DNA of 64,000 nucleotides from Nitrospirota bacterium (GTDB taxonomy: Bacteria > Nitrospirota > UBA9217). The notes beneath the pieces are model-generated. The model made no database searches and had not been told where the DNA came from. It saw only the letters and a list, made by a program, of their open reading frames with translations. Of this stretch, positions 187 to 52,609 are shown one piece after another. The stretch covers positions 1,440,001 to 1,504,000 of the forward strand of contig CAWFSF010000006.1 in the NCBI GenBank assembly GCA_963818475.1. The letters run 5' to 3'. The position numbers and the translations under genes were made by a program. Each line of letters opens with the position of its first letter. Positions within the stretch are counted from its first letter, which is position 1.

Positions 187-2637
187 TCAACCGACGCTTA
201 AGAGGCCCAGCTTGCCCTGCCACCTTCTCCAAAGCGAGTCGCGCAGCTGTGGATACTGCGTGAGCGCGGCGTCCTGTTGGATAAGCTCAAAAGCCTCGGT
301 CCGCGCCTTTTCCAGAAGGTCTGCATCGCGAATGATGTTCGCCGCGCGCAGGTCCGGCAGGCCTGACTGGCGCGTTCCCAGGAACTCGCCCGGCCCGCGC
401 AGACGAAGGTCCTCCTCGGCGATCTTGAAGCCGTCCGTGGTGCGCGCGAAAGCGTTCAGCCGCTCCCGCGCTTCGTCGGCGAACATCCGGGGACCCATCA
501 GGATGCAGTAGGACTGGTGGCCGCCCCGGCCTACGCGGCCGCGGAGCTGGTGAAGCTGCGCCAGGCCGAAGCGCTCGGGATGCTCGATCACCATGACCGT
601 GGCGTTCGGCACGTCCACGCCGACCTCGATCACTGTGGTCGAAATAAGGATATGCGTTTCCTTCGCTTTAAAGGCGGCCATGGCGGCCTCCTTCTCGTCA
701 GCCCTCATCCTGCCGTGCAGAAGGCCCACGTTCCAGTTCGGGAAGATGTCCTTCTGGATATGCGCCGCCATTTCTGTCGCTGCCTTGAGGTCGCTTTTCT
801 CGGTCTCCTTGACCAACGGGTAGACCACATAGACCTGACGCCCCTTCTTGATTTCCTCATCAAGGAACTGATAGGCCTCCCTGCGCCGGGGTTCGAAATA
901 GATCCGGGTGACGATGGGGCTCCTGCCCGGCGGCATTTCGTCGATCACGGACACGTCGAGATCCCCGTAGACCGTCAGCGCCAGCGTTCGCGGGATCGGC
1001 GTAGCGGTCATGACGAGCACGTCGGGCTCATAGCCCTTCGACGTAAGCGTTGAGCGCTGCATCACGCCGAAGCGGTGCTGCTCGTCGATAATGGCAAGGC
1101 CTAGGTGTTTGAACTGCACGTTCTGTTCAATGAGCGCGTGCGTACCGACCACGATGTTGGCAACGCCGGACCCGATCTCGGCAAGTACCATTTCCTTCGC
1201 CTTTTTCCTGAGGCCGCCCACGAGATGGCGCACCGTGATGCCCAGCGGCAATGCCAGCGCCTCGATATTATTGTAATGCTGTGCTGCCAGGATCTCCGTG
1301 GGTGCCATGAGACAGGCCTGGTAACCGTTTTCCACAGCCATGAGCGAGGCGATCATGGCGACGATGGTCTTTCCGCAGCCTACATCGCCCTGTACCAGCC
1401 GGTTCATGGGCCGGTCCCCGGTCATATCATTCTTGATCTCGGCGATCACTCGTTCCTGGGCGTTCGTTAACCGATAGGGCAGCTTCGACCGGAGCGCAGT
1501 TTCGAGCCGGTCAACCGCTTTGAACGCGATACCCTTCTTGGCCGCGGCTATTCCCCGCTTCCTGAGCGCCAGCCCCAGTTCCAGCGTGAACAGCTCTTCA
1601 AAGCTCATCCTTCGATGAGCCGCGCTCTCGCCACGGTTCAGGATGGCTATATCCTTTTCCTGCTCGGGGAAGTGCACCTCGGAAATCGCCTCGGCAGCGG
1701 ACAGCAGCGAGTATTTTTTAACAATATGATCCGGCAGAATGTCGGGCATGGTGCTGCAGCAGGAATCGATGATGGTCTTCATCATGCTGCGCAGGTACCG
1801 CACGGACAGGCCGGAGGTCGTGCGGTAGATCGGGACCGTCCTTCCCGCATGGATCAGGCTGTCCGGTTCAGCGTCGTCCATGATCTCATAATCGGGATTG
1901 TCGATCTGCGGCAGGCCGCCCCGGTAGGGGTTGGATTTGACGATGCCGGAAAGGACCACCTTCTGCCCCGGTTTGAATGCTTTTTTCATGAAGGGCTGGT
2001 TGAACCAGGAGCCGACGAGCATGCCGCTCCTGTCAGTGACCAGGAGCTCGAAGACCTTCACCCACTTCCGTTTTGTCTCGACCACTTCCGCCGAGACCAC
2101 TTCTCCCATCACGGTCTCATAGGAGCCGATGCTGAGCCGGCTGATCTTCTTCAGGTTGCCGCGGTCTTCATAGCGCCAGGGGATGTAAAACAGCGCTTCT
2201 TCGATCGTATTGACGCCGAGCTTCTTGAGGAGCTCGGCGCGTTTGGGGCCGATGCCTTTGCAGAATTGGATGGGGGTGTCGAGCGCGACCGGCGCTGCGG
2301 CAGAATCCGCTGGATGCGAAGAGGAGGTCCTGGGACGGGTCTTTATGGCTGCCAGCGGGGCCGGAGCGATGCGCCCCGTTTCGAGTGCTGCGATCACCGC
2401 TGATGCGCTGATGATGCGGTTCTTCTTCTGGTCTGTCGGCAGCGTATCGAAGCCGGAGAACAGCGCTTCGAGCTGCTGAAGGTACGCAGGATCTGTTGAG
2501 CAGCGCCTCAATTTTTCTATTTGCACGCGCATGAAAGGCTCGAGCGCTGCAAGGCTCCGGACATGGGCAAAGTTGTCCCGCGCCGCAAATATCAGCGGTT
2601 TCCCTATTCTCTCAATGATGGCTTTTCTATCGTCCAT
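187..2637 (-). CDS. recG: ATP-dependent DNA helicase RecG with N-terminal extension
   Basis: 816 aa. Wedge domain (YIPWRYEDR), Walker A QGDVGCGKT, DEQH, TATPIPRT, QLHQLRGRVGRG and TRG motif DLRLRGPGE. Confidence 0.97.
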   Translation of the reverse strand: MDDRKAIIERIGKPLIFAARDNFAHVRSLAALEPFMRVQIEKLRRCSTDPAYLQQLEALFSGFDTLPTDQKKNRIISASAVIAALETGRIAPAPLAAIKTRPRTSSSHPADSAAAPVALDTPIQFCKGIGPKRAELLKKLGVNTIEEALFYIPWRYEDRGNLKKISRLSIGSYETVMGEVVSAEVVETKRKWVKVFELLVTDRSGMLVGSWFNQPFMKKAFKPGQKVVLSGIVKSNPYRGGLPQIDNPDYEIMDDAEPDSLIHAGRTVPIYRTTSGLSVRYLRSMMKTIIDSCCSTMPDILPDHIVKKYSLLSAAEAISEVHFPEQEKDIAILNRGESAAHRRMSFEELFTLELGLALRKRGIAAAKKGIAFKAVDRLETALRSKLPYRLTNAQERVIAEIKNDMTGDRPMNRLVQGDVGCGKTIVAMIASLMAVENGYQACLMAPTEILAAQHYNNIEALALPLGITVRHLVGGLRKKAKEMVLAEIGSGVANIVVGTHALIEQNVQFKHLGLAIIDEQHRFGVMQRSTLTSKGYEPDVLVMTATPIPRTLALTVYGDLDVSVIDEMPPGRSPIVTRIYFEPRRREAYQFLDEEIKKGRQVYVVYPLVKETEKSDLKAATEMAAHIQKDIFPNWNVGLLHGRMRADEKEAAMAAFKAKETHILISTTVIEVGVDVPNATVMVIEHPERFGLAQLHQLRGRVGRGGHQSYCILMGPRMFADEARERLNAFARTTDGFKIAEEDLRLRGPGEFLGTRQSGLPDLRAANIIRDADLLEKARTEAFELIQQDAALTQYPQLRDSLWRRWQGKLGLLSVG

Positions 2638-2793
2638 AGGTTATATTCAGGACAATACTAGAATATTTTAAAGTTTTTGTCGAGGAAAAGAGCACTCATC
2701 GGGTAAAACCCTTACCTTATTTTTCATCAGTCGTGGTTAGAAGTTAACAGGTTTTCCCACGTCCCCCTGACCTTTTTACTGCTGATTATTTCC

Positions 2794-2822
2794 TTGCAAA
2801 CACCTTGTTCTTATGGTAAGGT
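2794..2822 (+). promoter_or_regulatory. sigma70-type promoter of rpmB
   Basis: TTGCAA-17 bp-TAAGGT with TG extended -10. GGAGG RBS precedes the GTG at 2868. Confidence 0.5.
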
Positions 2823-2867
2823 AGCCATCTTTCGGGCAATCATTTTCACATATGGAGGAATATTCTC

Positions 2868-3062
2868 GTGGCAGGTAAATGCGAAATTTGCGGTAAAGGC
2901 AGGCTCAGCGGCAACAAAGTGAGCCACGCTAACAACAAAAGCAAGAAGGTCTCCAAGCCGAATGTGCAGACCGTCAAGGCAGTGGGTCCCCATGGCGGCA
3001 ATGTTCGCGTCCATGCATGCACGCGCTGCATCCGCTCCGGCAAGGTTAAGAAAGTCAGCTAA
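2868..3062 (+). CDS. rpmB: 50S ribosomal protein L28 (Zn-ribbon form)
   Basis: CEICGK..GNKVSHANNK..PNVQ..CTRCIRSGKV. Confidence 0.97.
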   Translation: MAGKCEICGKGRLSGNKVSHANNKSKKVSKPNVQTVKAVGPHGGNVRVHACTRCIRSGKVKKVS

Positions 3063-3086
3063 ACCAGTCCGATCCCAGCTACGCAT

Positions 3087-3123
3087 ATGCCCTCCCCCTT
3101 TAAGGCGGAGGGCATTGTTTTTT
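3087..3123 (+). terminator. Rho-independent terminator after rpmB
   Basis: ATGCCCTCC/GGAGGGCAT stem followed by a T tract. Confidence 0.75.
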
Positions 3124-3279
3124 GTTACGCCTTAACCTCTGCAGCAAGCAACTCCTCACAGCCGGCAATTCGGAAACCCGAAAACTCCGGTGTTTTTTCG
3201 GTTCCACACCCCTTCGCGATCACCGGGAAAACCTGTTTCAAAAAGGGACATCCTTTTGAAAACTGGATGTAAATCTAAC

Positions 3280-3337
3280 ATGTAAAATTGTAATTTTACA
3301 TTGACACCGTCGATTCCGGGGATTAAAGTGTCAATGT
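3280..3337 (+). promoter_or_regulatory. sigma70 promoter overlapped by two inverted repeats (operator candidates)
   Basis: TTGACA(3301)-17 bp-TAAAGT(3324). Palindrome ATGTAAAATT-GT-AATTTTACAT at 3280-3301 and IR ACATTGACAC...GTGTCAATGT at 3298-3337. Confidence 0.6.
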
Positions 3338-3457
3338 GAAACACAGTTTTATTCTTGCTGTGAAAAAGGGAAATCTCACGAGAAAGCGGGATCACTGACA
3401 CGCGTACAAATCACCTGGACACCTATCGTGCCCGGGATAATAAAGGGAGGAATCATT

Positions 3458-4471
3458 ATGAAGAAAAGTATCATAGTTTTGCTCGTTGTTCTCAGCATCT
3501 TCGGTCTTGTCGTGGCAGTACAGGCCGCAAACGAACTGAAGGGAACCATGTACGTTTCTGGCCATGGCGGACATCTCGCCATCATAGACCTGGCCACTCT
3601 GAAGGAACCCACTGACGTTGAAAAGGACCGTATCGTCATTACCGAAGCAGGCTCTGAGATGGAAGGCAAAATTGCCGGCATGGACTTTGCTGCGGTGAAG
3701 AAGTCCGGCGGTTCGCACGGCAGTTCGCTTATCGACAAGACGCTTTATGTCGGCCTGCTGAACGGCACCGTGGTAACGTACGATCTGAAAACCGGAAAAA
3801 AATCAGCGCCCATCGCTGTCGGCAAGAAATTCTGCGACGCAGTGGTCGGTCCTGACGGCAACATCTACCTTGAAGACATGGCCGACGGGCATGTCTATAT
3901 TTTCGATCCGAAAGGCTTGAAGACCGTGGACAAGCTGCCGGTCGGTGCTGCAGTATGCGGTATTGCCTGGACCAAGTCCCGCGACAAGGCTTATGTTTCC
4001 GACATGCCCCAGGGAAAGATCTTCGTCATCGACTGGAAAACGAAAAAGACGGTAAAAGAGATCACCGATCCCGAGTTGACCTTTATCCACCAGCTCCGCA
4101 TGACCAATGACGGCAAGCAGGTATGGGTTGCAGCCGCAAATGAATACGATCCAGGCCTCAAGCCCGGCACCCATAAGTCGCAGATCGTCGTGATCGACAC
4201 AAAGACCGACAAGGTCGTAGAGCACATCGTTCTTCCTGACACGCTCAGGGCCCATGACGTGAAGTTCTCTCCCGATGGAAAAACAGCACTCGTCAGCGGT
4301 CGCGATTACGCGACCAAAGACGGCGCCATCGGAATCATGGACGTCAAGACCCGTAAGATCGTGAAAACCGTATCCATCTGCGCAGGCTGCCATAAGGCTG
4401 CCGGTGTTACGGTAACGATCGACGATGGCGCACCGCTCCTGTGCGGCATGGCTATTGACTGGAAGAAATAA
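3458..4471 (+). CDS. Secreted YVTN/YncE-type beta-propeller protein with C-terminal CxxCH motif
   Basis: Signal peptide MKKSIIVLL..VQA after a GGAGG RBS. Repeated blade motifs (SPDGK..V..ID..T.KVV) and CAGCH. Confidence 0.8.
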   Translation: MKKSIIVLLVVLSIFGLVVAVQAANELKGTMYVSGHGGHLAIIDLATLKEPTDVEKDRIVITEAGSEMEGKIAGMDFAAVKKSGGSHGSSLIDKTLYVGLLNGTVVTYDLKTGKKSAPIAVGKKFCDAVVGPDGNIYLEDMADGHVYIFDPKGLKTVDKLPVGAAVCGIAWTKSRDKAYVSDMPQGKIFVIDWKTKKTVKEITDPELTFIHQLRMTNDGKQVWVAAANEYDPGLKPGTHKSQIVVIDTKTDKVVEHIVLPDTLRAHDVKFSPDGKTALVSGRDYATKDGAIGIMDVKTRKIVKTVSICAGCHKAAGVTVTIDDGAPLLCGMAIDWKK

Positions 4472-4502
4472 ATCGTATACTATGCCGCACGTAGGTTAAC
4501 GC

Positions 4503-4537
4503 CGGAGGGCGGGGAATAACCCGCTCTCCGTTTTTTT
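4503..4537 (+). terminator. Hairpin plus T tract after the propeller gene
   Basis: CGGAGGGCGGG-loop-CCCGCTCTCCG-TTTTTTT. Confidence 0.65.
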
Positions 4538-4588
4538 ATTTTTTTCACTGCTGCCTATTTCATCTCCGAAGGAAAACCGCGCATCGTT

Positions 4589-5784
4589 ATGAATATCCCC
4601 TATGTAGCGCTTAAGAACCTGAAACGGAAGATCACGCGGACCTGGCTGCTCTTTGCTATCGTAGCTGTTGTTTCGGGTACGCTCTTCACGGCCACCCTTT
4701 TTTTAAAGAGTATTAACAACGCGCTGAAGCTCGGCACCTATCGCCTCGGCGCCGATATCCTGGTTGTGCCGGCAAGCGCCGAGACCAGGGCCAAGGCAGC
4801 GCTCCTGTCCGGAGAGCCGACGCAATTTCTTATGAACAGATCGGTGCTCGATCAGGTGCGAAAGATCGAAGGGGTCAAGGCCGCCACGCCGCAGCTCTTT
4901 CTTAAACCAAGCAGCTTCTCCTGCTGCTTTAACGTGGAAATTTTTCTCGTTGCCTTCGACCCCGAGACCGACTTTACCGTAAAACCCTGGCTCGAAAAAC
5001 ACCTGAACAGGCCCCTGGGCCCCAACGAAATCATTACCGGCCGTGAGATCCCGGTCATCGCCGGCGACAATATCCCCTTCTTCGGCACAACGTTTAGCGT
5101 GGTGGGAACCATGGAACCCACGGGGATGGACTTCTTCGACCGCACGGGTTTCATGAGCCTTGATGGCGCCTACAAAATGGCAGAAGATTCAAAATTAAAA
5201 GCACTCCAACCGCTCGATATCAGCCGAGACCAGGTTTCCACCGTCCTGGTACAGGTCACCGAAGACTTCAGCCCCGACCGCGTCGCCATCGGATCGAACA
5301 TGACATACCCGACGTCAAGGCACTGACCTCCGACACCGTCATCAGCACCGTAAGAAAACAGCTTTCGGGCCTGATCCGCGCCATTGTCATTATCAGTGTC
5401 ATACTCTGGTTCATCGTCCTTTTGATCATGGCCTTTGCGTTCTATATGATCGTCAACGAACGCCGACGCGAGATCGGCCTGCTGCGCGCCATGGGAGCGA
5501 ATCGTGGCCATATTGCTGCGATCGTTCTGACCGAAGCGTCGCTGCTATCAGCCGCAGGCGGGGCCGTGGGCGTTCTGCTTGGGTTCGGCCTGCTGATGAG
5601 CATCAAAAGTCTGCTCCTCCATTACCTGAAGCTTCCCTATCTGTTCCCTTCATCGCCTGAGTTGATCGTTCTGACCGCGGGAGCGATATCCCTTTCCATC
5701 CTGACCGGCCTGCTCTCGGCGTTTTTGCCGGCCGTCGCCATCATCAGGACCGAGCCCTACGAGGCCATAAGGAGCGCAGAATGA
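4589..5784 (+). CDS. MacB/LolE/FtsX-family ABC permease (frameshift near 5290)
   Basis: ALKNLKRKITRT..LGADILVVP N-terminus and VNERRREIGLLRAMGA C-terminus across ORFs 4589-5326 and 5422-5784. SFSCCF in the periplasmic part. Confidence 0.85.
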
Positions 5785-6377
5785 GATCTATTCTTACCAT
5801 TATTCTGCTGCTGACCCCAGTCATGTTCTCCTGTTCCCGGGATGCCGCCAAACCGGCAGCGCCGGTTGCTGAGCAGAAGAACGACATCCAGCTCTTGCGG
5901 GAACAGATTCAGAACAACCCGCAGGACGCCGAGGCGTTGTATCAACTCTCCGAGCTCTATGATCGTGCAGGCTTGTTCCAGGAAGAGATCGACACCCTGC
6001 GCAAGGTAGTTGCCATAAAGCCGGACATGGGATATGCCTATTTCAAGCTGGGGACTGCCTGCAACAGGATCGAACAGTACCAGGAGGCGGTGGCAAACTT
6101 CACCAAAGCGACGAAGTTGATCCCCAACCAGCCCATGGTATACAACAACCTTGCCTTCTCCTATGGAAAACTCGGTAAAACGGACCAGGAGATCGCAACC
6201 CTGAAAAAAGCGCTTGCCATACGGCCGGGCTATAACATCGCCCGCTTCAACCTCGGTATGGCTTACCTTAGATCAGGACAGCAAAAGGAAGCGCTGCAGC
6301 AGTATACGGTCCTCAAGGAACGGGACGAGGGGTATGCAGCTGCGTTAAAAAAAGAGATCGATTCCAAAAGGAGATAA
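5781..6377 (+). CDS. TPR-repeat lipoprotein
   Basis: Lipobox-like MFSC. TPR consensus (AYFKLG, VYNNLA, ARFNLG). Confidence 0.8.
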   Translation: MRSILTIILLLTPVMFSCSRDAAKPAAPVAEQKNDIQLLREQIQNNPQDAEALYQLSELYDRAGLFQEEIDTLRKVVAIKPDMGYAYFKLGTACNRIEQYQEAVANFTKATKLIPNQPMVYNNLAFSYGKLGKTDQEIATLKKALAIRPGYNIARFNLGMAYLRSGQQKEALQQYTVLKERDEGYAAALKKEIDSKRR

Positions 6378-6785
6378 TTGATGCAACGGTTGATGAAAAT
6401 GTTTTTCCCGGCGTTTTCAATAGTACTTTTCTGTTCCCTTTCCGCATCTGCAGAGATGATACAATGCGCTCAGTGCGGCATGGGGGTGGACCTCGACTCA
6501 AAGTTCACGTCCAGGATCGTTCAGCCAAAGCAGACCCGGCATTTCTGCGATATCGGCGACCTCTTCGCCTATCTGAAAACAAACCCTTCTGCCGCTGCCG
6601 AGGCACAGGTCAGGGATTATCGGTCCGGAGAGTGGGTCAACGCCCAGCAAGCCTACTATGTAAATTCTGCAAAGAAGTTTCAGACACCCATGGGCTGGGG
6701 CATCGCAGCATTTAAGAACAAACCGGAGACCGCTGAATTCGGAAACGCGCTGAATTTCAATGATATGACGAAAAGCCTGAAATAA
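6378..6785 (+). CDS. nosL: NosL-family copper chaperone-like protein
   Basis: CAQCGM, FCDIGDL, A..AYYV and TPMGWGIAAF motifs. Signal peptide. Confidence 0.85.
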   Translation: MMQRLMKMFFPAFSIVLFCSLSASAEMIQCAQCGMGVDLDSKFTSRIVQPKQTRHFCDIGDLFAYLKTNPSAAAEAQVRDYRSGEWVNAQQAYYVNSAKKFQTPMGWGIAAFKNKPETAEFGNALNFNDMTKSLK

Positions 6786-6818
6786 GACCCTCCCGGGCGT
6801 GTGCAAGAAAGGAATGTC

Positions 6819-7482
6819 ATGATCGAGCTGAAAGACCTGTCAAAAACTTATAGGGTATCAGACCGGACCGTCAATGCGGTCCTGCCGGTCACATTGTCCA
6901 TCAACCAGGGAGACTTTGTGTCCATTGTCGGACACTCCGGGAGCGGCAAAAGCACGCTGCTCAGCCTGATCGGCGGAATAGCGAAACCCGACAAAGGGAC
7001 CGTGGTCATAGACGGCACCAATATCCGGGACTATGACGACCGGAAGCTTTCAAAATTAAGAAATGACAAGTTCGGGTTCGTCTATCAGTTTGCCAGCCTC
7101 ATCCCCACGCTCACGGCCAGGGAGAACGTCCTGCTGCCGACCGTTTTCGGTCAGACAAAAAAACGATACCGATGCAGTTCAATTGCTTCACCAGGTCGGT
7201 CTGGGCGACAAGATCGACCGCTACCCCTCCGAGCTTAGCGGCGGCGAACAACAGCGCGTGGCCATAGCACGCGCCTTTATTAACTCGCCCGAGGTCATCC
7301 TTGCCGACGAGCCGACCGGCGACCTCGATGAAGAGACCGAGGCGGAGATTATGGCGTTCTTCGAAAAGATCAATAAAGAAAAAAAAGTCACCATGATCAT
7401 GGTGACCCACAGTTCAGAGCTTGCGCTCCGGGCCGCCAGCCGGTTCAGGATGAAGCAGGGAACGCTGGAAAAGTTGAATTAG
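6819..7482 (+). CDS. LolD/MacB-type ABC transporter ATP-binding protein (frameshift near 7165)
   Basis: GHSGSGKST, LSGGEQQRVAIARA, LADEPTGDLD, VTH. Confidence 0.88.
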
Positions 7483-7502
7483 CGGCACATCATGGACTAA
7501 TT

Positions 7503-7532
7503 AAAAAAGCGGCCATATCAGGCCGTTTTTTT
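7503..7532. terminator. Bidirectional terminator
   Basis: AAAAAAGCGGCC-loop-GGCCGTTTTTTT between convergent operons. Confidence 0.65.
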
Positions 7533-7563
7533 GTTTGCAGGACCATCTGATAAAACCGGTAAA

Positions 7564-7727
7564 CCTAAAAACGGTATTTGGACACGGAAGAATCGGAAAC
7601 ATCTGATTAACGCGGACAAATTCTGAAGCAAAGCATTCACCTATTGGGTGAACCTCTTGTAAAAGAAATAATCCGCCGTTATCCGGCTCTTATCCGTGTT
7701 AATCCGTGTCCAAATGCTTTTTTGAGG
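7564..7727. mobile_element. 164-bp MITE, copy 1 (CCT...AGG ends)
   Basis: Near-identical to 40731-40894. TIR cores TTTGGACACGGA/TCCGTGTCCAAA. TAAA on both flanks. Confidence 0.75.
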
Positions 7728-7799
7728 TAAAGTGGTTAGTCCGTTTTTTTTAAGTCAATGGCTGGCAGAGACCGGGTGCAAACATGACCGACCGTAAAT

Positions 7800-7831
7800 A
7801 AAAAGACGGCGGCCATTGTTTGGCCGCCGTC
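7800..7831 (-). terminator. Terminator of the cytochrome operon
   Basis: GACGGCGGCCA-loop-TGGCCGCCGTC with an adjacent A tract. Confidence 0.65.
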
Positions 7832-7875
7832 CTGATGTGCATCGGATGCAGAATGAACCCTGAAACTACTTCTTT

Positions 7876-8577
7876 TTACCTGACTTTGTCTCCAAAGAGA
7901 TGATCATACTCAGCCGGATGATGGTGCTTCAGCTGGTCAATGGACATCTTCCCGGTGAGCCACATCCAGTTCATCGGGAACACCTCAGACCTCAGGTGCT
8001 CGTTATAGAAGTGGAAGATCAGGATGAACACGATCGCAAGCAGGGCTTCATCGCTGTGCATGGCAATGATCACGTCCCAGATCCACTGGATCGACCACAT
8101 CGGGAAGAGCGACGATACCGTCACCGGGAACGCCAGGAAGAACCCCGACGCGCCGATGATGAACATGCCCCAGTACACCGCCCAGTAGTCGAACTTCTGC
8201 ATGTAGTTGAACTTGCCGAAGTAGGGCTTCTCTTTCCTCAGCCCGAAGAAGTACATGAAGTTGTGGAACGCGTCAACAACGTCCTTGGGCATCGGAATGA
8301 GCGTGGGCCTCATGCCTCCCTTGCGGAACTGGTTGATGAGGTAGAACTGGTGGTAGATGAAGTCGAGCAGCATGGTGATGCCCGCCACGCGGTGTATGAG
8401 CCCCGCCATCTTTGCGCCGCCCCAGAAGCTGATCCAGGCGCTGGCAGGGTCCTGATAGGCATACTTGAGCCCCCAGCCGGTGAAGGACAGGAGCAGGAAC
8501 GTGGTGAACATGATGACATGCTGGATGCGTGCGGAGAGGTCGAACCTCTCGATCTCAGTCGGAACAGTCTTATTCAT
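7876..8577 (-). CDS. Cytochrome b subunit (FdnI / Ni-Fe hydrogenase b-type family)
   Basis: RIQH, IHR..G, KFNYMQKFDYW and MHSDEA..H motifs. Four TM segments. Confidence 0.85.
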   Translation of the reverse strand: MNKTVPTEIERFDLSARIQHVIMFTTFLLLSFTGWGLKYAYQDPASAWISFWGGAKMAGLIHRVAGITMLLDFIYHQFYLINQFRKGGMRPTLIPMPKDVVDAFHNFMYFFGLRKEKPYFGKFNYMQKFDYWAVYWGMFIIGASGFFLAFPVTVSSLFPMWSIQWIWDVIIAMHSDEALLAIVFILIFHFYNEHLRSEVFPMNWMWLTGKMSIDQLKHHHPAEYDHLFGDKVR

Positions 8578-9472
8578 GATCGTCCCTCTTTCTGAACAAA
8601 CGTTCGCGGATGTCGGCGAAGATATCCAGAAGCACATGGATGCAGATGAACATGAAGACGCTCACGGTGAGAACGATAAGGCCGATCTCGGTCCAGTGGG
8701 CAATGGGATGCATCGGTTTGTGCGTGATGGCTGCCACGAATTTTTCGGTTGCACCCGGGTGGCACTTGGCGCAGGTCTTGATCTTATTCGCTCCGTTCAC
8801 CGGCGAGGACGGGTCCTTAGCGCTCTTCACATCATGCGCGCCGTGGCAATCCGAGCACGCAGGAGCGTTGCGGTGGCCTACTTTGAGCTTTCTGCCGTGG
8901 AAGCTTTCCTTGTAGCGCTCCATGACATGCGGGCTGAAACCGTACTTCTCGGTCATGCTCTTTTCTTCATGGCACTTGCCGCAGGTTTCGACAATATTAA
9001 AATGATTGACCGCCGATTCCCTGCTGGTCTTTGACTGGATATAATGCGGCGACCCGTGGCAGTCCGTACACACCGGGCCGTCTGAGGATTTTTTTACGAT
9101 GACATTCTGGCCATGGACGCTTGTTTTGTACGCCTGGTAGGTATCGGCATGACAGTTCACGCAGGCGGCCTGCGCGACCGCATTGGACCTGCTCTTCGGG
9201 GAAATGGCTGCGGCAAGTTCCACCACGGTTTTGTCCGGCTTGGCTCCCGACAATCCCTGATGCTGTGCACCTTGCAGCGTCAGGTGGCACATGGTACAGT
9301 CATTCATCCCGCCGTGGACCGATTTGGAGAATTTTTCCTGATCTACTTTTACAGCGCCTTCCATGGACCCGTGACAGCCCAGACACGTTGCAGCATCAGC
9401 TGCCGCGTGTGCCGACGGGGCCAGAAGAAGGGTAAACAAGAACAACGATACTGCGTTCAACCAGTTCCTCAT
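8570..9472 (-). CDS. Heptaheme c-type cytochrome with C-terminal membrane anchor
   Basis: Signal peptide and seven CxxCH motifs (CLGCH, CTMCH, CVNCH, CTDCH, CGKCH, CSDCH, CAKCH). C-terminal TM helix. Overlaps the cytochrome b start. Confidence 0.9.
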   Translation of the reverse strand: MRNWLNAVSLFLFTLLLAPSAHAAADAATCLGCHGSMEGAVKVDQEKFSKSVHGGMNDCTMCHLTLQGAQHQGLSGAKPDKTVVELAAAISPKSRSNAVAQAACVNCHADTYQAYKTSVHGQNVIVKKSSDGPVCTDCHGSPHYIQSKTSRESAVNHFNIVETCGKCHEEKSMTEKYGFSPHVMERYKESFHGRKLKVGHRNAPACSDCHGAHDVKSAKDPSSPVNGANKIKTCAKCHPGATEKFVAAITHKPMHPIAHWTEIGLIVLTVSVFMFICIHVLLDIFADIRERLFRKRDDHE

Positions 9473-10550: not shown

Positions 10551-10605
10551 CGTTGCCTCAGAACGCCGGTCTGATCTTGTTTTGCCCGTCATCGCAGTGA
10601 TAGGT

Positions 10606-11307
10606 TCATTCTCCAAGATAGGCCTTTTTGATGCCCGGGTCATTCTCGAGCATCGCTGCCGGGCCCTGCATAACGATCTTCCCCGTCTCCATGACGTAGG
10701 CGCGATGCGCCAGCCGGAGAGCGGCTTTAGCATTCTGTTCCACGAGAAGGACCGTGGTGCCCTGCTGATTGATCTCTTTGATGATCTTGAAGATCCTGCT
10801 CACGATAATGGGGGCAAGACCGAGGGACGGCTCGTCGAGCAGCAGCAGTTTCGGCTTTGCCATCAGCGCCCTGCCGATGGCCAGCATCTGCTGTTCTCCG
10901 CCGGACAGGGTGCCGCCAAGCTGATGCCGCCTTCCTGCAAGCGCCGGGAACATCTCAAAGCACCGTTCCATGTCATCGGCCGTCTCCCGCTTGTTCCTGA
11001 CGAAGGCTCCCATCTCAAGGTTCTCGGCCACCGTCATCCGCGAAAAGATGCGTCTGCCTTCCGGGACCTGGGACACGCCCATGCGGACGATCTCGTGGGC
11101 AGGACGCCCGGCGATCGGAACCCCGTTGTAGACAATACTCCCCTGCTGCAGCATCGAAACACCCGAGATCGACATGAGCGTCGTCGATTTGCCGGCCCCG
11201 TTCGCGCCGATGAGCGCCACGATCTCGCCCTGTTCCACGTGAAGGCTGACTCCTTTGAGCGCTTCGATCATGCCATAGGAAACGACGATGCCGGTCAGTT
11301 CAAGCAT
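10606..11307 (-). CDS. livF: Branched-chain amino acid ABC transporter ATP-binding protein
   Basis: GANGAGKST, VPEGRRIF, LSGGEQQMLA, LDEPSLGLAP. Confidence 0.92.
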   Translation of the reverse strand: MLELTGIVVSYGMIEALKGVSLHVEQGEIVALIGANGAGKSTTLMSISGVSMLQQGSIVYNGVPIAGRPAHEIVRMGVSQVPEGRRIFSRMTVAENLEMGAFVRNKRETADDMERCFEMFPALAGRRHQLGGTLSGGEQQMLAIGRALMAKPKLLLLDEPSLGLAPIIVSRIFKIIKEINQQGTTVLLVEQNAKAALRLAHRAYVMETGKIVMQGPAAMLENDPGIKKAYLGE

Positions 11308-11474: not shown

Positions 11475-12250
11475 TCAGTCATGGCGGCCCTCCTCCTTGC
11501 CGAGATAGGCCTCGATCACGGCAGGATCTTCCTGAATGTCCCGGGGCAGCCCCTCGGCGATCTTTACTCCGTGGTCGAGGACCAGCACGCGATCGGAGAT
11601 GCCCATGACCACCCTCATGTCATGCTCGATCAGGATGATGGCCACACCATTATCGCGGATCCTGCGGATAAGCGCCATGAGGTCCTGCGTTTCCTGCGGG
11701 TTCATGCCTGCTGCCGGCTCATCAAGCAGCAGCAGGTGCGGCTCGGTGCCGAGCGCCCGGGCGATCTCAAGCCGCCGTTGGTCACCGTAGGAAAGATTGG
11801 ATGCACGATCGTCGCTCTTGACCTCCAGGCCGACGAACTTCAGGATATCCATGGCGCGAAAGACCATGTCCCGTTCTTCCTTGCGCACCCGTTCCGGCCG
11901 GATGATGGCGCCGAACACGCCGGTCCTGGTCCGGCAATGGCCCGCGACCATGACGTTCTCCAGGCAGGTCATATCATTGAACAGGCGGATGTTCTGAAAC
12001 GTGCGGGCAACGCCCAGCGCCGTAATATCATGAGGCTGCATACCCGTGATGTCGTGGTCATGGAATAGATATGGTCCCTGCCGTGGGCTGATAGATCCCG
12101 GTGAGGCAGTTGAAGAACGTGGTTTTGCCGGCGCCATTGGGGCCGATAATGCTCACGATCCTCTCCCGGTCTACCCGCACATCGATGCCGTCGAGGGCAC
12201 TTGAGCCCGCCGAAATGTTTTGTCAGATTTTTTGTTTCCAGAAGATGCAT
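11475..12250 (-). CDS. livG: Branched-chain amino acid ABC transporter ATP-binding protein (frameshifted)
   Basis: [16 protein letters not shown] start, [34 protein letters not shown]. Confidence 0.88.
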
Positions 12251-17897: not shown

Positions 17898-18013
17898 TAC
17901 CACGGAGGCACGGAGACACAGAGAAGGTCAAGAGCTTTGATCACTGGTTTTAAACCAGAGCTGAAAGACTTTGGTCCACTCAGCTACTCTCCGTGCCTCG
18001 TGTCTCCGTGGTA
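17898..18013. repeat. Palindromic REP-like element
   Basis: TACCACGGAGGCACGGAG ... CTCCGTGCCTCGTGTCTCCGTGGTA. Confidence 0.55.
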
Positions 18014-18051
18014 CATTTTTACTTTTTCGTTATGAAAAGGAATACCATACG

Positions 18052-19745
18052 ATGATCCATCTCCTCACACCCCGCTATTATGCAGTCAGAAACCGCATGA
18101 CACGGCTCGCGCCCGGCGACGGGCTGAAGACCCTCATGCTCGCCCTGCTCGGGCTCGGTTTCTGGGCTTTCCTGTTCGCCATCTCCTTCAAGGTCCTTTC
18201 CTATTTCAGGACCATCGAGGGGCTGGGAGACCTGCTCGCGCTCAGGCTCTTGTCGATGATCCTGTTGACGTTCTTCTCGATCCTGGTCTTCAGCAATATC
18301 GTCACGTCCCTCTCGACCTTCTATTTGTCGGGCGAACTCGACATCCTGCTCTCGGCACCGGTGAAGATCGAGGACATCTTCCGGGCAAAATTCATGGAGA
18401 CCATCATTGATTCGTCCTGGATGACGCTGATCTACGGGTTGCCCGTCTTTATCGCCTACGGCACGGTGTTCCAAGCCTCGCTCTGGTACTATCTCGGGCC
18501 TGATCGCCACCATGGTCCCTTTTCTGATCATTCCTGCGGTCATCGGCATCATCATCACCATGCTGCTGGTGAACGCCTTCCCGGCACGTCGGGCCAAGGA
18601 CATCCTGGTGCTCCTGGGCCTTCTGTTCTTTGTGGCCATCTACATCCTCTTTCGCATGCTCAGGCCTGAAAAGCTCGTGGACCCGGATACGTTCCCCACG
18701 CTCGTCCAGTACCTGACTGCCATGCGCGGACCGGTCTCACCCCTGCTGCCCTACCTCTTGGGCGATCGGAGGTGCTTTCTCCGCTGCTTCGCAGATCGGG
18801 CGGCGATGCCGGTTTCTATCTGCTCATGCTCTGGAGCACTGCCGGCGCAGGGGTCGTGATCGGTGAATGGGTCTGCAGCAGGATCTATTACACAGGCTGG
18901 TCCCGTTCGCAGGAGGGAAAAAAGGCGCCGATCTCCCGCTCCCCGCTTGCCGATGCCCTCTTCAATTTCCTCTCCCGGCCCTTCCCGGGAAAAATGCGCA
19001 CCATCGTGCTGAAGGACATAAAGCTCTTCTTCCGCGACACCTCGCAATGGTCGCAGCTGTTCCTGCTGCTGGCGCTCATTATCGTATACCTCTACAGCTT
19101 CAAGCTGCTGCCGCTCGAGCGCGCAGCCATGCCCAGTTTCTATCTGCAGAACCTGATCTCCTTTCTGAACCTCGGCATGGTGGGATTCGTCACCTCGGCC
19201 GTGGCCGTCCGGTTCGTGTTCCCGGCGGTGAGCCTTGAGGGCGCTGCCTTCTGGATCATCCGTTCAGCTCCGCTCTCGATCAGCGATTTTCTCTGGGCCA
19301 AGTTCTGGAGCAGCCTGCTGCCGCTCCTGGTACTGGCCGAGATGCTGATCGTGCTCTCCAACACGCTGCTGAAGGTCACCCCCTTCATGATGGGTCTCGG
19401 CATCGTGACGGTCTGCATGATGACCTTCGGCATTACCGCACTCGGCGTGGGACTGGGCGCCGTCTTCCCCAGATTCAAACACGAGAACGTCGCCCAGATA
19501 CCGACCGGCTTCGGCGGCATCGTGTACATGCTGGTGACCATGCTGTTCATCGGCTCGGTCATCATTCTCGAAGCCTGGCCCGTTTACCGCATTTTTACGG
19601 CACAGACCTTCGGCAGCCTCCATATCCGCCGTCCGGATGGACAGGAATTGCCCTCTCCTTTACATCGGCTCTGCTCGTCAACGTTCTGGCAGTGTACCTG
19701 CCTCTTTCTCTGGGACTGAAGAAGCTGGCCCAGCGGGAAATATAG
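18052..19745 (+). CDS. Putative ABC exporter permease (several frameshifts)
   Basis: Multi-TM ORFs 17971-18669, 18512-18859 and 18772-19719 with ELDILLSAPV, KDIKLFFRD..QWSQ and SLEG..FWIIRSAP. Confidence 0.8.
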
Positions 19746-20025: not shown

Positions 20026-23000
20026 ATGCAGCTCAAAGCCCTTGAAATGATCGGGTTTAAGTCCTTCTCAGACAAGACGACCGTAACGTTTCAGCCGGGC
20101 GTAACGGCCGTGGTCGGGCCCAACGGCTGCGGCAAGAGCAACATCTCCGACGCCATCCGCTGGGTGCTGGGCGAACAAAGCGCAAAGCATCTCCGCGGCG
20201 ACAAGATGGAAGATGTGATCTTCAACGGGAGCGAGAGCCGCAAACCCATGGGCATGGCCGAGGTCACGCTCAGGCTCTCGAACGTCGAAGGGCATCCTCT
20301 CCAACGAGTTCAACGGCTTCACGGAGCTCGAGATCACGCGCCGTCTGTACCGTTCCGGCGAGAGCGAATACCTGGTCAACAAGATCCCCTGCCGCCTCAA
20401 GGACATCCGCGACCTCATGATGGACGCCGGCGTGGGAGCCAAGACTCCATGCGATCATCGAACAGGACCGGGTGAAAAAGATCATCTATTCAAAACCCGA
20501 GGACCGGCGGTTCCTGTTCGAGGAAGTGGCCGGCGTCATGAAATACAAGGCCCGCCGCCAGGAAGCCTTCTCCAAACTGGAGTCGACCCAGCAGAACCAG
20601 CTCCGGGTGAACGACATCATCATTGAGGTGAAGCGCCAGGTCAACTCGCTCGACCGGCAGGCCAAAAAGGCCGAGCGCTACCAGAAGCTCCGGGCCGAGA
20701 TGAAGGACCTCGACTTGCGGCTTGCCTCCGTGGACTACTCGAACCTCGGCATCGACTGGACGGCATCGTCGGAAGAGTTCAAGAACGTCGAGGACGAGGT
20801 GACGAAACTGCATGCCGCGCTGAGCACGATCGAGGCCAGGCATCGAAGAGACGCGCGCCGATACCCTGGCAGCGGAGCACGAGCTCTCGTCGCTCCAGCA
20901 CAAGATCCACGAGACCGAGACCGCCCTCAGCCGTGCCGAGCATCGGGTGGAGCTGTCGAAGAGCCAGATCGCAGCGCTGAGCGCACAGCGCAGCCGCGAC
21001 TTCGCCGACCTTGAGTACCTGAAACAGGAAACAGCACGGACAGCAGAACAGCGAACGCAGCAGGAGGAGGAATCACGGGTCCTTTTCACGTCGATCGAGG
21101 AGCAGAACGTTGTTCTCGGCAGCAGGAACACGATCCTCGAATCGCTTACCCTGGCGCTGAAGGAGAAGGAAAACTCCCTCGATGAGGCCCGCACCGGCAT
21201 CTTCAATGCCATGACCGCGTCAGCAGCGGAAAAGAACCGCATCGGCAACCTTGAGTCGCGGATCCACCAGATCGACGAACAGGAAGAGCGGGGCAGCAGA
21301 GAGCAGGCGAGCTGACGCAAAAGCTCCAGGAGCTTACGACGCGCCTCGTGAAAAGGAACGGGAGCTTGAGGAGATCGCGGCGCGCCGGAGCGCGGCCCAG
21401 GACGAGCACGCGCGCGTCACGGCCCGGCTGGAAGAGTCGCTGGCAAAGAAGAAAAGCGCTCGAAACCGAGCTCGGCAATACGCGCAACACGCTTGCCGGC
21501 CAGAGCTCGCGCCTGCGTTCCCTGCTCGAACTGGAACAGCGCCTGGAGGGCTACCAGAAAGGCGTCCAGACCGTCATGTCGGCGCGCAAGGAAGCCGCCT
21601 CAAGCGACCGGCTCGGCACCATCCACGGGATCGTCGCGGACATGATCGAGACGGAGCCGCGGTACGAAATGGCCATCGAGGCGGTGCTGGGCGACCGGCT
21701 GCAGTCCGTGGTCGTCGATTCGCAGAACGATTCGCTCAAGGCCATCAACTATCTCAAAAGCGAGAGCGGCGGCAGAAGCACCTTCCTCCCCCGCATGCCG
21801 CGCGAGATCAGATCAGAACCGTTCATCAAGAACGGCCATGCCGGCGTCATCGGTTCGGCCCTCAGCGTCGTGCGCTATCAGGACGACAACCGCAACGTGG
21901 CCCAGTACCTGCTGGGCGACGTCGTGGTCGTGGACACCATGGACACGGCGCTCTACCTCTGGAACAAGAACGGTTTCAGCAAGACCGTCGTGACCCTGGC
22001 CGGGAGAGATCGTCGATCCCTGGGGCGCCGTCACCGGCGGCGCCGTCGATGCCGGCGGATCCGGCATGCTCACCAAGCGGCGCGAGATCAAGGACCTGGA
22101 GCAGGAGGTCACGGCGCTCAAGTCACAGATTGCAGCACTCGAGACCGAACTGACGGCCGTGGAAGCCTCGATCGGGGCGGATACAAGGACCTCGGCGGAG
22201 CTCTCGCAGCAGGTCCATCGCATGGAGATCGAGCTGGTGAACCGGGAGAAGGATTGCACCGCGATCCGGGAGGAGATGCGGGCGGTCCACCGCCCGGGCG
22301 GCCACCCTGGGAGCAGAAGCCTCGGAACGCGCCTCGCTTCGCGCCGAGCTGGCAACCGGCGATCGAACAGGCCGCGGCAACGCTCCGGGAGCTCGAAGCC
22401 GGCCATGCCAGCGCCCAGGCGAGCATCGAGTCGCTGCAGGCAGAGCTGTCGCTCAAGCGGGAAGAGCTGGAAGCGGCGCGCGTCGAGATCACCGAAATTA
22501 AGATGGAGGTCACGGCGCTTCAGGAAAAGCAGGCGGCCGCCACCCGCAGCATCGCTGCCCTGACACAGATGTCCCTGGAATTTGCCGACCGGTTTGCCAA
22601 ACGCGAGGCCGAGATCACCGACATTGCGGCCACACTGACCGATCTGGAAGCATCCATCGCAGGAGCCGAGGACGAGATCAAGGGCTTCATCGAAACGCTC
22701 GAAGCCGAACGCCGGGTCCTGCTGACCAGGCAGGAAGCCCATGCAGCAGTAACGTCCTCCCTCCATGCCGCCGAAGAGCAGGCGCGGCAGGTCCGGCATG
22801 ATATCGAGACGGCGCAGAAGCGGCTTTCGGCGAACGAGGTCAGGCGCACCGAGCTCCGCATGAAGATCGAGCATCTGAAGGACTCGATCTGGACCATCGT
22901 ACCACAGCGAACTTGAGGCGGTCGTCCAGGAGCTGGGCCAGTTCGAGATCAATGTCGACGAAGCGAGGCTCCAGGTCGACGAACTGCGCCAGAAGATCGA

Positions 23001-29184: not shown

Positions 29185-30581
29185 TGACAAGTTTCAGGAC
29201 ATCGGTTACCCGGATATGTCAAGACATCGGTTACCCGAAATCCATTTAAATTAGGATGTCAGTTTCCTTAATGCTGTTTGATGCTATCATGCTCTCCTAA
29301 TCTGAATCAAGAAGGAGAGCCTCTATGGAAGAAGAACTCAGACAGGCAGCTATTAGCCGACACATCCAGGGAGGCGAATCGCCAAAGGATGTTTATACCA
29401 GCCTGAACCGATCCAAAAAGTGGTTCTTCAAATGGCTGATACGATATCGAACCGGCGGACCCGACTGGTACAAAGAGCAATCTCGCGCTCCCAAAACAAA
29501 GCCCTCAGAAATCGACGAGAAGTCGAAAGAGCGTATTCTTTCGACCAGACAAAACTTGGTGGATGCCCCTTATGCCCAAATTGGAGTTTCCTCCATAAAA
29601 TGGGAGCTTAAGAAGCAAGGGTTGCCGTTTCCCTCGGACAGCACGATAAACCGGGTGTTGAAACGCGAAGGGCTCGTTAAAAAAAACAGCTTATGCGCCC
29701 AAAGGGGTCGAATACCCGTACTTCACCGAAGCCTTGGGATGCAACAACATCCACCAGATGGACCTGGTGGGGCCGCGCTACATTAAAGATGACGGCAGAT
29801 TCTATGCGCTGAATGTCATTGATCTGTTCAGCCATGAAGTCTACACCGAGGCTCAAAGAACGAAACAGGATTCCCACGTCTGCCAAGGCCTTTTGCGCTG
29901 TTGGAAGACCGTGGGCATCCCTGATTACCTGCAGATGGACAACGCGCTGAACTTCCGGGGCAGCAACCGGCATCCCAGGTCCATGGGGATGGTCATACGG
30001 CTTTGTCTGAGTTACGGTGTCCATCCGGTATTCATCCCGATCGGAGAACCATGGCGTAACGGCGTTGTGGAACGTTTCAATGACACCTACGACAAACGGT
30101 TCTTTCGTCGGCAATGGTTCTCAAGCTATGCTGTGCTGAAACAGCAGAACAAGAATTTTCAACGGTTTCACAACAAGCATCACCGATACAGCTGCCTCAA
30201 AGGGAAAACGGCTCATGAAATGAAACTGGCCCACGGCTTTGCGCCAATAACCGTGAGGTCGAATAGCAAGATGCCGGATCTTAGCTTCATCCCGGATGGA
30301 AATGTATCTCTCGTACGGTTCATCCGGAGCAATCGGCAGCTTGATATCTTTGGAGAACGTTTCGAGGTATCAAGAGACCTCATATACTCTTATGTCAGGG
30401 CACAGATTGTAACGAATCTACATGCTGTGCAGCTCTATCTAGGAAATGACATCGTCGATACTTTTGAGTACCTAATGCCGGACGATTTACTACCAGTTGA
30501 GCAAACTATCAGACTCGGGTAACCGATGTCTTGATATATGGGACCATTAGAATCGGGTAACCGATGTCCTGACATTTGACA
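29185..30581 (+). mobile_element. IS481-like insertion sequence, 1397 bp
   Basis: 28-bp TIRs matching at 25/28 positions (TGACAAGTTTCAGGACATCGGTTACCCG versus TGTCAAATGTCAGGACATCGGTTACCCG). Internal repeats of GACATCGGTTACCCG. 6-bp target duplication ATTAGC at 29179-29184 and 30582-30587. Confidence 0.9.
29325..30522 (+). CDS. DDE transposase (HTH plus integrase core), split at an A8 run
   Basis: N-terminal HTH in ORF 29325-29786. HQMD, QMDN and NGVVERFN in ORF 29734-30522. Confidence 0.88.
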
Positions 30582-48933: not shown

Positions 48934-49981
48934 TTACTTCTTAAGAGAGTGAACAATCCACTGCTCAATTTCAGGCAAGTACTTCGGACTCACTAACATG
49001 ATCTCCAAAATGGCCATATATTGGTCGGGTCCATATAAGTGTATCCTCATCTGGGATAGTCTTTAAAACATCATAGGCTTGCGGAGATAGAAGTAAAAGC
49101 GTCAAGTTATCATTCACTTGCCTCCCTTTAAGAAGACTGGTTAGCGCGTCATAGTCGTGGAAGGAGTATCCGACAGCAAGCACGATTTTGGCATGCTCGC
49201 AACATCTGGAGAAATAGTGATAGGCGGTCAAATAAGGTTCCGCTGTGGTCACTTTGTTACCAGCTGGATAAATAACTGTATTCTGGTACGCATCTGAGTC
49301 AACAACATCATACATTGGCAGAGATTGGACAATCCTCCCACTAGATGTTATTTTCAACCAATTCACCGATCCGTGAAGCTTGTGAAGGACAATGTGACGA
49401 ACCGGACGGGTGATATTAAACAACTCAAAGTTTCTTGGATTCCAGAAATGTTCTCGCAGAAAGGGGTCATCTTCCATACCATCAACAAAGTCATATTTGG
49501 AGTATTGTTCATTGCAAAAATTTTCAATTGCCAGATCATAGTTCGTAGTGAAGATAGGTAAGCACTGAGTAGCCGAATCGATATGGGAGAAGATGACATC
49601 AAGCAAAGGCTGATAAACCTCAATAGCCCTTTTAATATCAACAGCTCGGTACTCTCGAATAATTGAATGACGAATAAGAGAGCGTAAGCTTGCTGCGTCA
49701 CTTCTTTTGACTTCGTACGCAGGCTGATTTTCGACATCTAAAACGAAAGACGACACATACTGTAAATTTAAGAAAGTCTCGAGGTCTCCCATAATAGACT
49801 CCAAGTCATACCCCCTGGCTAATATGAGTGCTGAAAGAAGAGATGCCTCGTTGTCAGACGTAATCTCAGTGGCGAGCTTCTTTACAAATTGTTCCATTGT
49901 AGGCTTGCCGAGAGGTACGGAAGCCCCGGCACCGAGAAATAGAATGATAGGTGATTGAGTAATGGTTGGGTTTAATGGCAT
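48934..49981 (-). CDS. SIR2-family (SIR2_2) putative NADase
   Basis: LFLGAGAS, FTTNYD, KLHGSVNW, VGYSFHD. The ORF as read stops at 48971; a 1-nt correction extends it to 48934. Confidence 0.88.
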
Positions 49982-50031
49982 AATTATTGTGCGTGAACTT
50001 CCATATCTCGATTATTTTTCTATATTGTTTT

Positions 50032-52397: not shown

Positions 52398-52609
52398 TCT
52401 CTGCCCCCATTTTTTGCGGGTCCAGCGTGGACATATCGGCAATCAGCGCCTTGGCTGCGGTTGTCAGGTTCAGGCGAGCGGAGCTGCCGCTCGCTGAGTT
52501 GGCCTCTCAGTAGCTGTTTTATTCGGGTCGCGGTTGCGACTGTTATGGAAGCATGCGTCTTTTGAGCTTCTTCAACTCGTTTTGAGATCCAATCATCACT
52601 ATTAGACAT
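52394..52609 (-). CDS. Small hypothetical protein overlapping the ATPase start
   Basis: AGGTGA RBS and MSNSDDWISKR start. Stop overlaps the ATPase ATG. Confidence 0.6.
   Translation of the reverse strand: MSNSDDWISKRVEEAQKTHASITVATATRIKQLLRGQLSERQLRSPEPDNRSQGADCRYVHAGPAKNGGRE

Follow-up and report, generated by a model that had tools for sequence, protein, structure and literature searches.

In nitrous oxide (N2O) reductase, NosZ, the CuZ site lies at the centre of a seven-bladed propeller and is held by seven His; for its assembly, Cu(I) goes from NosL to NosD, a part of the ATP-driven complex NosDFY, and from this complex to NosZ, as set out in passages of PMC13685413. Clade III nosZ clusters are described in the same passages as lacking nosDFYL and as carrying b-type cytochromes and ATP-binding cassette (ABC) components, one of them of MacB type, which maybe play an analogous role (PMC13685413). 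The host phyla of this clade named in excerpts of PMC13477213 are Nitrospirota, Myxococcota and Desulfobacterota, and the supplement of that paper yielded nothing on clade III gene neighbours. Here, we describe positions 3458 to 7482 of a stretch of 64,000 nucleotides (the window) from a Nitrospirota bacterium (contig CAWFSF010000006.1, positions 1,440,001 to 1,504,000), where a gene for a secreted propeller is followed by genes for an ABC permease, a TPR protein, a NosL-family protein and an ABC ATPase. The region is best explained as an operon for a new periplasmic metalloprotein family with its own dedicated envelope machinery. More specifically, we tentatively favour a haem-c metalloprotein with an axial His/Cys site, into which a machine of MacB type, acting in analogy to NosDFYL, would insert a thiophilic metal, probably Cu(I).

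A predicted six-bladed propeller with a ring of His and Cys residues

The first gene of the operon is the following.

3458..4471, plus strand: propeller gene, coding for a Sec-signal protein of 337 amino acids that forms a six-bladed beta-propeller according to an AlphaFold2 model, its motifs and their conservation

The open reading frame (ORF) tool had set the start of this gene at GTG 3428, while the ATG at 3458 is preceded by a GGGAGGA ribosome-binding site, and the 337-residue protein read from it is the database protein P0001, with 100% identity and coverage. Numbered from this Met, the protein carries GHGGH at 35-39, the six motifs S-H87-G, F-C126-D, V-C167-G, I-H211-Q, A-H266-D and L-C329-G, and furthermore D140-M141, D182-M183 and C308-A-G-C311-H312. 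The AlphaFold2 model, built on a 40-sequence alignment, has a mean pLDDT (predicted local distance difference test) of 85.5 and a pTM (predicted template modelling score) of 0.84, and its 23 strands make up six four-stranded blades, the last strand (328-335) closing blade 1. H87, C126, C167, H211, H266 and C329 are residue 2 or 3 of the strands 86-92, 125-130, 166-171, 210-215, 264-270 and 328-335, respectively, which we read as the first strand of each blade; by general propeller topology, it is the first strand of a blade that lines the central channel. The protein holds only nine His and five Cys (4.2% of its residues), and from this composition the chance of meeting His or Cys at all six equivalent blade positions is about 5e-9. 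Since two of the five Cys belong to CxxCH, the three that are left cannot all be disulfide-paired. Together with H39 of the GHGGH motif, the six residues make up our list of candidate metal ligands (H39, H87, C126, C167, H211, H266 and C329).

In the model, GHGGH and the two DM pairs sit after the second strands of blades 1, 3 and 4, respectively. They would all lie on the same face, where M141, M183, E229 and R282 would form a second ring. The CxxCH motif (308-312) forms a short helix on the connection between the outer strand of blade 6 and the closing inner strand, a connection that should cross the same top face as the Cys/His ring. C308-A-G-C311-H312 stands in a protein with a Sec-type signal peptide, and would bind haem c covalently.

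Conservation and extent of the family

H39, H87, C126, C167, H211, H266, C308, C311, H312, C329, M68, M141 and M183 are kept in all 40 database homologues, which show 62-93% identity, while H145, H239 and H256 fall outside both the invariant columns and those conserved to at least 90% in this alignment. A second, genomic set of 80 ORFs (79 genome loci and the window), reaching down to about 49% identity, retains the same His, Cys and Met residues in 79-80 of its members, and H36 is His in 76 of them. CxxCH is present in 79/80 of the genomic ORFs and in 11/11 relatives of only 26-59% identity. Among these 11 distant sequences GGH is likewise invariant, and C126, C167, H211, H266, C329 and D182-M183 are nearly so. 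A sequence-only reading of this stretch had proposed a potential metal ligand at the equivalent position of each of six blades, pointing also to GHGGH, two DM loops and CAGCH; all of these motifs are present, the model puts the six residues at position 2-3 of first strands, and the homologues of both sets preserve them.

The family comprises 692 clusters at 90% identity (E ≤ 0.001), the best 120 of which are 61-100% identical, and the names given by the sources, where there are any, are all of a generic kind (YncE, cytochrome D1 domain, lactonase, WD40 or hypothetical). When 1.84 billion representatives were searched with a profile, 31 proteins came up at E ≤ 1e-30, mostly fragments or giant YVTN-repeat proteins, beyond which the matches were generic YVTN repeat proteins; a search of the ESM Atlas returned only the family's own clusters and generic lactonase/YncE clusters. 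The protein itself reaches 40.1 bits with the YVTN repeat model TIGR02276 (cut-off 27.85). The best match in the PDB, both by sequence (E 2.5e-16) and by fold (E 3.7e-16), is 1l0q_A, an archaeal YVTN surface-layer propeller, followed among the fold matches by hydrazine synthase beta (5c2v_B, E 1.4e-14), and the TM-scores (template modelling) of these best fold matches are 0.5-0.6, no solved structure being close. Among the hosts, anaerobic Nitrospirota with the label Thermodesulfovibrionales or Candidatus Sulfobium predominate. Literature searches yielded no description of the propeller family, which seems to be a metalloprotein family of these anaerobes that has not been described before.

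Accessory genes of the operon

Four genes follow the propeller gene in the window.

4589..5784, plus strand: MacB/FtsX-type ABC permease, in two frames (4589-5290, then 5290-5784), with Cys112-Cys113 encoded at nucleotides 4922-4927
5781..6377, plus strand: TPR protein with a signal peptide and Cys18, its start overlapping the permease stop
6378..6785, plus strand: NosL-family protein with C30-x-x-C33-G-M35 and M105, and a signal peptide without lipobox
6819..7482, plus strand: LolD/MacB-like ABC ATPase, in frames +3 and then +1, with the break in an A-run at 7155-7161

The accessory genes are closely packed: those of the permease and the TPR protein overlap, those of the TPR protein and NosL abut, and the gap between NosL and the ATPase is 15-33 nucleotides, depending on the choice of start. 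The gap between the propeller gene and the permease gene is 117 nucleotides. Linkage was counted in 56 loci with at least 5 kb downstream of the propeller gene, where the permease was found in 53, the TPR protein in 52, the ATPase in 52, NosL in 27 and a DUF4418 protein in 20. The sequence-only reading had named the permease, the TPR protein, NosL and the ATPase; all four are present, with the Cys-Cys pair in the permease, but the permease and ATPase genes are each frameshifted here. As for the co-occurrence it had proposed as a check, the Cys-Cys permease accompanies the propeller in nearly all loci, while NosL does so in about half.

The FtsX domain of the permease scores 68.2 bits against a cut-off of 25.5, and MacB_PCD, on the truncated piece from the window, 23.8 against 27; the intact permease of locus L010 matches the ADOP, LolCE and MacB models of NCBIfam, in all cases below the equivalog cut-offs. 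Its periplasmic Cys-Cys is invariant, being found in 65/65 permeases and in 37/37 sequences of a separate alignment (A2) that includes two permeases of a sister system (see below). A vicinal Cys pair is a metal-transfer feature, with the CC of MerT type as precedent. With MacB, LolCDE and FtsEX the system shares the FtsX domain, a MacB_PCD-like periplasmic domain, a LolD-like ATPase and the organisation into one permease and one ATPase gene. It differs from them in that the operon holds no membrane-fusion protein or TolC partner, that the periplasmic Cys pair is invariant, that the partners are the TPR lipoprotein, NosL and DUF4418, and that no equivalog cut-off is reached.

Cys18 of the TPR protein is kept in 66/69 sequences, and the protein is probably a lipoprotein. 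NosL gives 40 bits with PF05573 (gathering cut-off 24); its CxxCGM is kept in 32/32 sequences and aligns, though only weakly (E 0.67), with ECHLCGM of NosL 7og7, a solved structure. Its signal peptide ends in ...SLSASA-EM, the sole earlier Cys being preceded by Phe, and hence lacks a lipobox. The NosL gene occupies four different positions in the operons, and in a quick tree of the propellers both main branches include loci with it. DUF4418, a small membrane protein with three Cys in 23/23 sequences and a fourth in 22/23, always occurs together with NosL in these loci. With the Cys pair of the permease, CxxCGM of NosL and the Cys of DUF4418 all kept, every such accessory protein retains thiophilic residues.

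Regulatory elements around the propeller gene

Two elements flank the propeller gene.

3301..3329, plus strand: promoter-like site TTGACA-17-TAAAGT, predicted by consensus match only (10/12 matches)
4503..4530, plus strand: GC-rich hairpin of 11 pairs, nine of them G-C, followed by TTTTTTT, between the propeller and permease genes

Directly 5' of the promoter-like site lies a conserved GTAAAATTnnAATTT element, and element and TTGACA are common to the window, L010, L001, L002 and L003, that is, to 5/7 aligned upstream regions. At 3270-3300, an AT-rich, partly palindromic conserved element (ATGTAAAATTGTAATTTTACAT in the window) borders directly on the -35 box and may be an operator, and a small conserved hairpin at about 3414-3437, immediately 5' of the propeller gene's ribosome-binding site, may be a structure of the 5' untranslated region. 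The hairpin at 4503..4530 is probably a terminator or an attenuator. A hairpin with a T-tail, differing in sequence, follows the propeller gene in 59/65 loci, as against 75/400 random windows of 220 nucleotides, and its conservation suggests that more of the structural protein is made than of the helper proteins. No Rfam model matched above its gathering score in window positions 2600-8000.

A sister family and unusual relatives

Second propeller proteins, of 378 amino acids, encoded within L039:11897-14988 and L012:28-2169 represent a sister family with GHGGH, CxxCH and a closing L-C-G strand, and in both loci the propeller gene is followed by its own Cys-Cys permease and its own ATPase, without a TPR protein or NosL. 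The sister family comprises 1008 clusters at 90% identity, all unnamed or 'hypothetical'. The two families align in hhalign with 99.2% probability (E 1.5e-19), and the sister protein was also modelled with six blades (pLDDT 87.7).

Two relatives carry redox or copper-linked additions: in P0126 (479 amino acids), a cytochrome c domain is inserted in the EMEG loop, and P0127, a surface-layer-like protein of 2470 amino acids, joins a NosD-family beta-helix to one full propeller copy that keeps the motifs. P0122, P0123, P0130, P0142 and P0114 have C-terminal extensions ending in Gly-Cys or similar, which occur in none of the core family.

Extra propeller copies that stand without ABC genes occur in six loci. 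In 4/6 of these cases, a second locus of the same assembly carries the operon (propeller, permease, TPR protein and, where the flank reaches it, the ATPase), which is the behaviour expected of a client that is served in trans. The surroundings of extra copies vary. At L022:3386-7647 and L025:4596-8969 an ABC-2 ATPase, an ABC-2 permease and a Sulf_transp (YeeE/YedE-like) gene precede the extra copy, and in L060 and L063 a LapA-domain protein is encoded near ABC-less copies. A desulfoferrodoxin (L057:7290-7685) adjoins the ABC-less copy of L057, and that of L071 lies between two Crp/Fnr-type regulators (5948-6628 and 10551-11225); these last two neighbourhoods hint that the propeller may be linked to oxidant stress or to the sensing of N-oxides.

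Proposed mechanism and its relation to the NosZ system

In the mechanism that we propose, Sec would export the apo-propeller and haem c would be attached at CxxCH. The three Cys and three to four His would surround the opening of the central channel, with two Met, a Glu and an Arg behind them, and this ring would bind a thiophilic metal, in all likelihood copper in the form of one or more Cu(I) ions. Cytoplasmic ATP hydrolysis would move the periplasmic domain of a MacB-type mechanotransducer, the Cys pair of the permease would take up the metal, from NosL where present, and the apo-propeller would then be loaded, as NosZ is by NosL and NosDFY; the TPR lipoprotein may hold the apo-propeller as a client. 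In roughly half of the lineages, a soluble NosL-type chaperone and the four-Cys membrane protein DUF4418 would join in, and the helper genes would be expressed behind a leaky terminator. The haem would relay electrons to the ring site, as CuA does to CuZ in NosZ, and candidate substrates are N2O, NO, O2 or sulfur species. We infer haem attachment, metal binding, copper as the metal, the direction of transfer and redox catalysis alike; what the analysis shows are the modelled fold, the positions and conservation of the residues, the gene linkage and the family scores.

The likeness to NosZ and its NosDFY-NosL machinery would lie in a periplasmic propeller with central, blade-borne metal ligands, here predicted, and in the loading of the cofactor in the periplasm by an ATP-driven membrane complex fed with Cu(I) by NosL, here proposed; in both systems, the helper genes follow the structural gene. 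The differences are manifold. Six blades are predicted and not seven, with three Cys and three to four His in the place of seven His, and the CxxCH haem motif replaces the CuA cupredoxin domain, the protein ending 8 residues after its closing strand. A MacB/FtsX-type permease with a Cys pair replaces the ABC-2 protein NosY and the NosD beta-helix, and NosL is soluble and found in only about half of the loci. Among the 63 ORFs of the window that were scanned against Pfam there is no NosD or NosZ family, just as the sequence-only reading had stated for nosZ and nosD, and neither the operon nor these 63 ORFs include ABC-2 genes; nosD, nosF and nosY are not among them, and a NosL-family gene is there.

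Electrons could come from two genes beyond the operon and convergent to it.

7876-8637, minus strand: cytochrome b (Ni_hydr_CYTB, formate-dehydrogenase-gamma-like) by Pfam
8570-9472, minus strand: membrane-anchored cytochrome with seven CxxCH (heptahaem)

The two cytochromes are a possible quinol-to-periplasm electron donor module of the propeller system. The pair is found in only 17-18/79 loci, most of which also keep truA and the wider synteny, so that shared ancestry is inseparable from function.

Several observations weigh against the loading of a catalytic metal site. The position of the His and Cys at the axis is deduced from strand position and general topology, and the model is of low confidence in the segments at about 69-75 and at 310-327, the latter including the loop after CxxCH. 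In the alignment with the relatives of 26-59% identity, only the core family shows H87 and the EMEG loop, and in the sister family a His is aligned to C167 and a non-ligand residue to H211, so that the site is not fixed. NosL is missing from the operon in 29/56 loci, and its family membership (40 bits) would by itself be no proof of copper or of a Cu-S cluster. Outside the syntenic clade with its 17-18/79 loci, no redox partner is conserved. Finally, that each propeller family has its own permease and ATPase would be equally expected if the propeller were a stoichiometric partner of a transporter. The view of the sequence-only reading that this is a metal-site propeller with its own maturation genes nevertheless gains from the conservation of the residues, from CxxCH, from the linkage to permease and ATPase and from the hairpin; what has to be toned down is the link to NosL and the claim of copper or of a Cu-S site.

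Alternative explanations

The alternative that survives best, which we consider unlikely and still a serious contender, is that the propeller is no matured enzyme but a working periplasmic partner of the ABC system, a metal chaperone, sponge or substrate presenter in homeostasis or export. The near-obligate linkage to the permease (53/56 loci) and the ATPase (52/56) would suit such a role, as would the one-to-one pairing with a cognate permease and ATPase in the sister family, and a content of Met, His and Cys that fits Cu(I) binding as well as catalysis. The AztD and TIGR03866 propellers serve ABC systems, and like the propeller described here they are periplasmic, of YVTN type and encoded with an ABC transporter. 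The window protein does match their models, but its scores of 18 bits with the AztD zinc metallochaperone model NF038015 and 38.8 bits with TIGR03866 (PQQ_ABC_repeats) are far under the respective cut-offs of 400 and 287, and neither family is known to have the CxxCH motif or the Cys ring. The invariant CxxCH and the relative P0126 with its cytochrome c domain point to electron transfer, which a chaperone would not need; moreover, propeller copies exist without any ABC genes, and the conserved hairpin behind the propeller gene suggests unequal expression of the two parts.

We hold it to be improbable that the protein is an enzyme acting on sulfur compounds or thiols with haem as its only cofactor. 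In such an enzyme the His and Cys would serve as distal haem ligands and redox thiols, as they do in haem enzymes with Cys ligation, and the ABC, TPR and NosL proteins would deal with the substrate or hold the thiols in the reduced state. The model, with CxxCH on a top-face loop beside the Cys/His ring, would agree with it, as would hosts that are mainly anaerobic Nitrospirota of the Thermodesulfovibrionales or Candidatus Sulfobium and the extra copies of L022 and L025 behind an ABC-2 pair and a Sulf_transp gene. Yet such sulfur-transport neighbours occur in 2/79 loci only, seven conserved potential ligands exceed the needs of a haem pocket, and metal transfer is what NosL and a vicinal Cys pair are classically associated with. 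Cytochrome cd1, NirF, NirN and hydrazine synthase beta are similar in being propellers that hold or neighbour haem; they differ in having more blades and a non-covalent haem d1 or none, and we know of no link of any of them to NosL or a MacB-type ABC system. The protein passes the Pfam gathering threshold of Cytochrom_D1 (PF02239; 37.1 against 25.5), with residues 177-317 matching positions 228-356 of a profile of 368, or three blades, which, judged from the alignment, is a domain-level similarity of propellers and no evidence of haem d1.

Less probable still is a divergent nitrous-oxide reductase, either a member or a close functional analogue of the clade III lactonase-type L-NosZ. The clade III enzymes are YVTN/lactonase-like propellers as well. 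By the description given in passages of PMC13685413, their clusters resemble this locus in gene context, with adjoining b-type cytochromes and a MacB-type ABC pair, and lack the nosDFYL genes; the window operon is likewise without nosDFY, yet has a NosL-family gene. Host phyla overlap according to excerpts of PMC13477213, and some family members are labelled lactonases by their sources. Cytochrome b and a MacB-type ABC pair are both present in the window, the permeases being compared with those of clade III by description, but cytochrome b occurs in only 17/79 loci. With the clade III L-NosZ model NF052460 the window propeller scores 33 bits against a cut-off of 700, and of ten full-length relatives (P0121-P0142) eight score 29-49 bits, while P0123 and P0135 are not matched at E ≤ 1e-5; with the same model, scores of up to 142 bits are seen for ordinary YVTN proteins. 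No L-NosZ was found among 31 scanned representatives or the ORFs of the 79 loci, the NosZ clade I/II models TIGR04244 and TIGR04246 are not among the eight NCBIfam families matched at E ≤ 0.01, and neither the 23 PDB sequence matches nor the 47 Foldseek matches listed include a NosZ chain. The protein is also shorter than L-NosZ (337 amino acids against a model of 480 positions), leaving no room for a cupredoxin domain, and it has a haem motif and Cys ligands, with six blades and a Cys/His ring where NosZ has seven blades and seven His. By sequence comparison, the propeller is related to NosZ only at the level of generic YVTN propellers.

The one frameshift each in the permease and ATPase genes would speak for a system that is defunct in this organism, with decaying accessory pseudogenes, but we consider this very improbable. 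The pieces before and after either break have 89-92% protein identity to L010, where the genes are intact, one break falls in a homopolymer run and other genes of the window are split alike. The permease switches frame near 5290, where one base is missing compared with relatives, and the ATPase in the A-run 7155-7161, where there is one extra base; in relatives, the permease is a single ORF of 398-425 amino acids (L010, L001, L002 and L004) and the ATPase one of 220-223 (L010, L002 and L004). The other split genes, with adjacent ORFs in different frames, are those of a liv-type ABC ATPase (11475-12186), an ABC_tran_2 protein (17971-19719), an SMC protein (20026-22916), an LmuB-like ATPase (50032-52442) and an alpha-2-macroglobulin (58184-63906). 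Such splits suggest a high rate of indel errors in the assembly and are typical of long-read assemblies left uncorrected. The intact relatives and the other split genes make an assembly error likelier than decay.

Other genes of the window

Upstream of the operon, an ORF of 91 codons at 2811-3086 on the minus strand was considered as a conserved divergent neighbour and rejected, being the antisense shadow of rpmB (ribosomal protein L28; 2868-3062, plus strand). Further downstream, HTH_32 and rve integrase ORFs at 29325-30522 (plus strand) represent an insertion-sequence transposase, apparently in two overlapping frames. At 48971-52442 (minus strand), a gene for a SIR2-domain protein adjoins the split gene of the LmuB/SMC-like ATPase in a region of lower G+C content (0.475-0.495), which is a candidate anti-phage defence island.

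Implications

Returning to the metal-loaded haem protein that we favour, one may take it a step further, to a new class of periplasmic haem-metal enzymes with a copper or copper-sulfur site of three Cys and four His directly under a c-type haem, the propeller described here being its founding member. In these, MacB-type assembly would replace NosDFY, and they would reduce N2O, NO or O2 in anaerobic Nitrospirota and some Myxococcota, the sister family being a second, differently tuned enzyme. We regard this wider claim as rather unlikely. If the favoured reading is right, the system would be a second, independently built case of the principle of N2O reductase, namely a blade-held metal site that an ATP-driven machine fills in the periplasm with the help of a NosL chaperone, but with different ligands, a different cofactor for electron entry and a different class of ABC protein. 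It would make the insertion of cofactors by MacB-type mechanotransducers testable, a question that is open for the clade III N2O reductases. The roles of NosL-family proteins outside nos clusters would become testable as well, and with them the periplasmic chemistry of the abundant uncultured anaerobic Nitrospirota.

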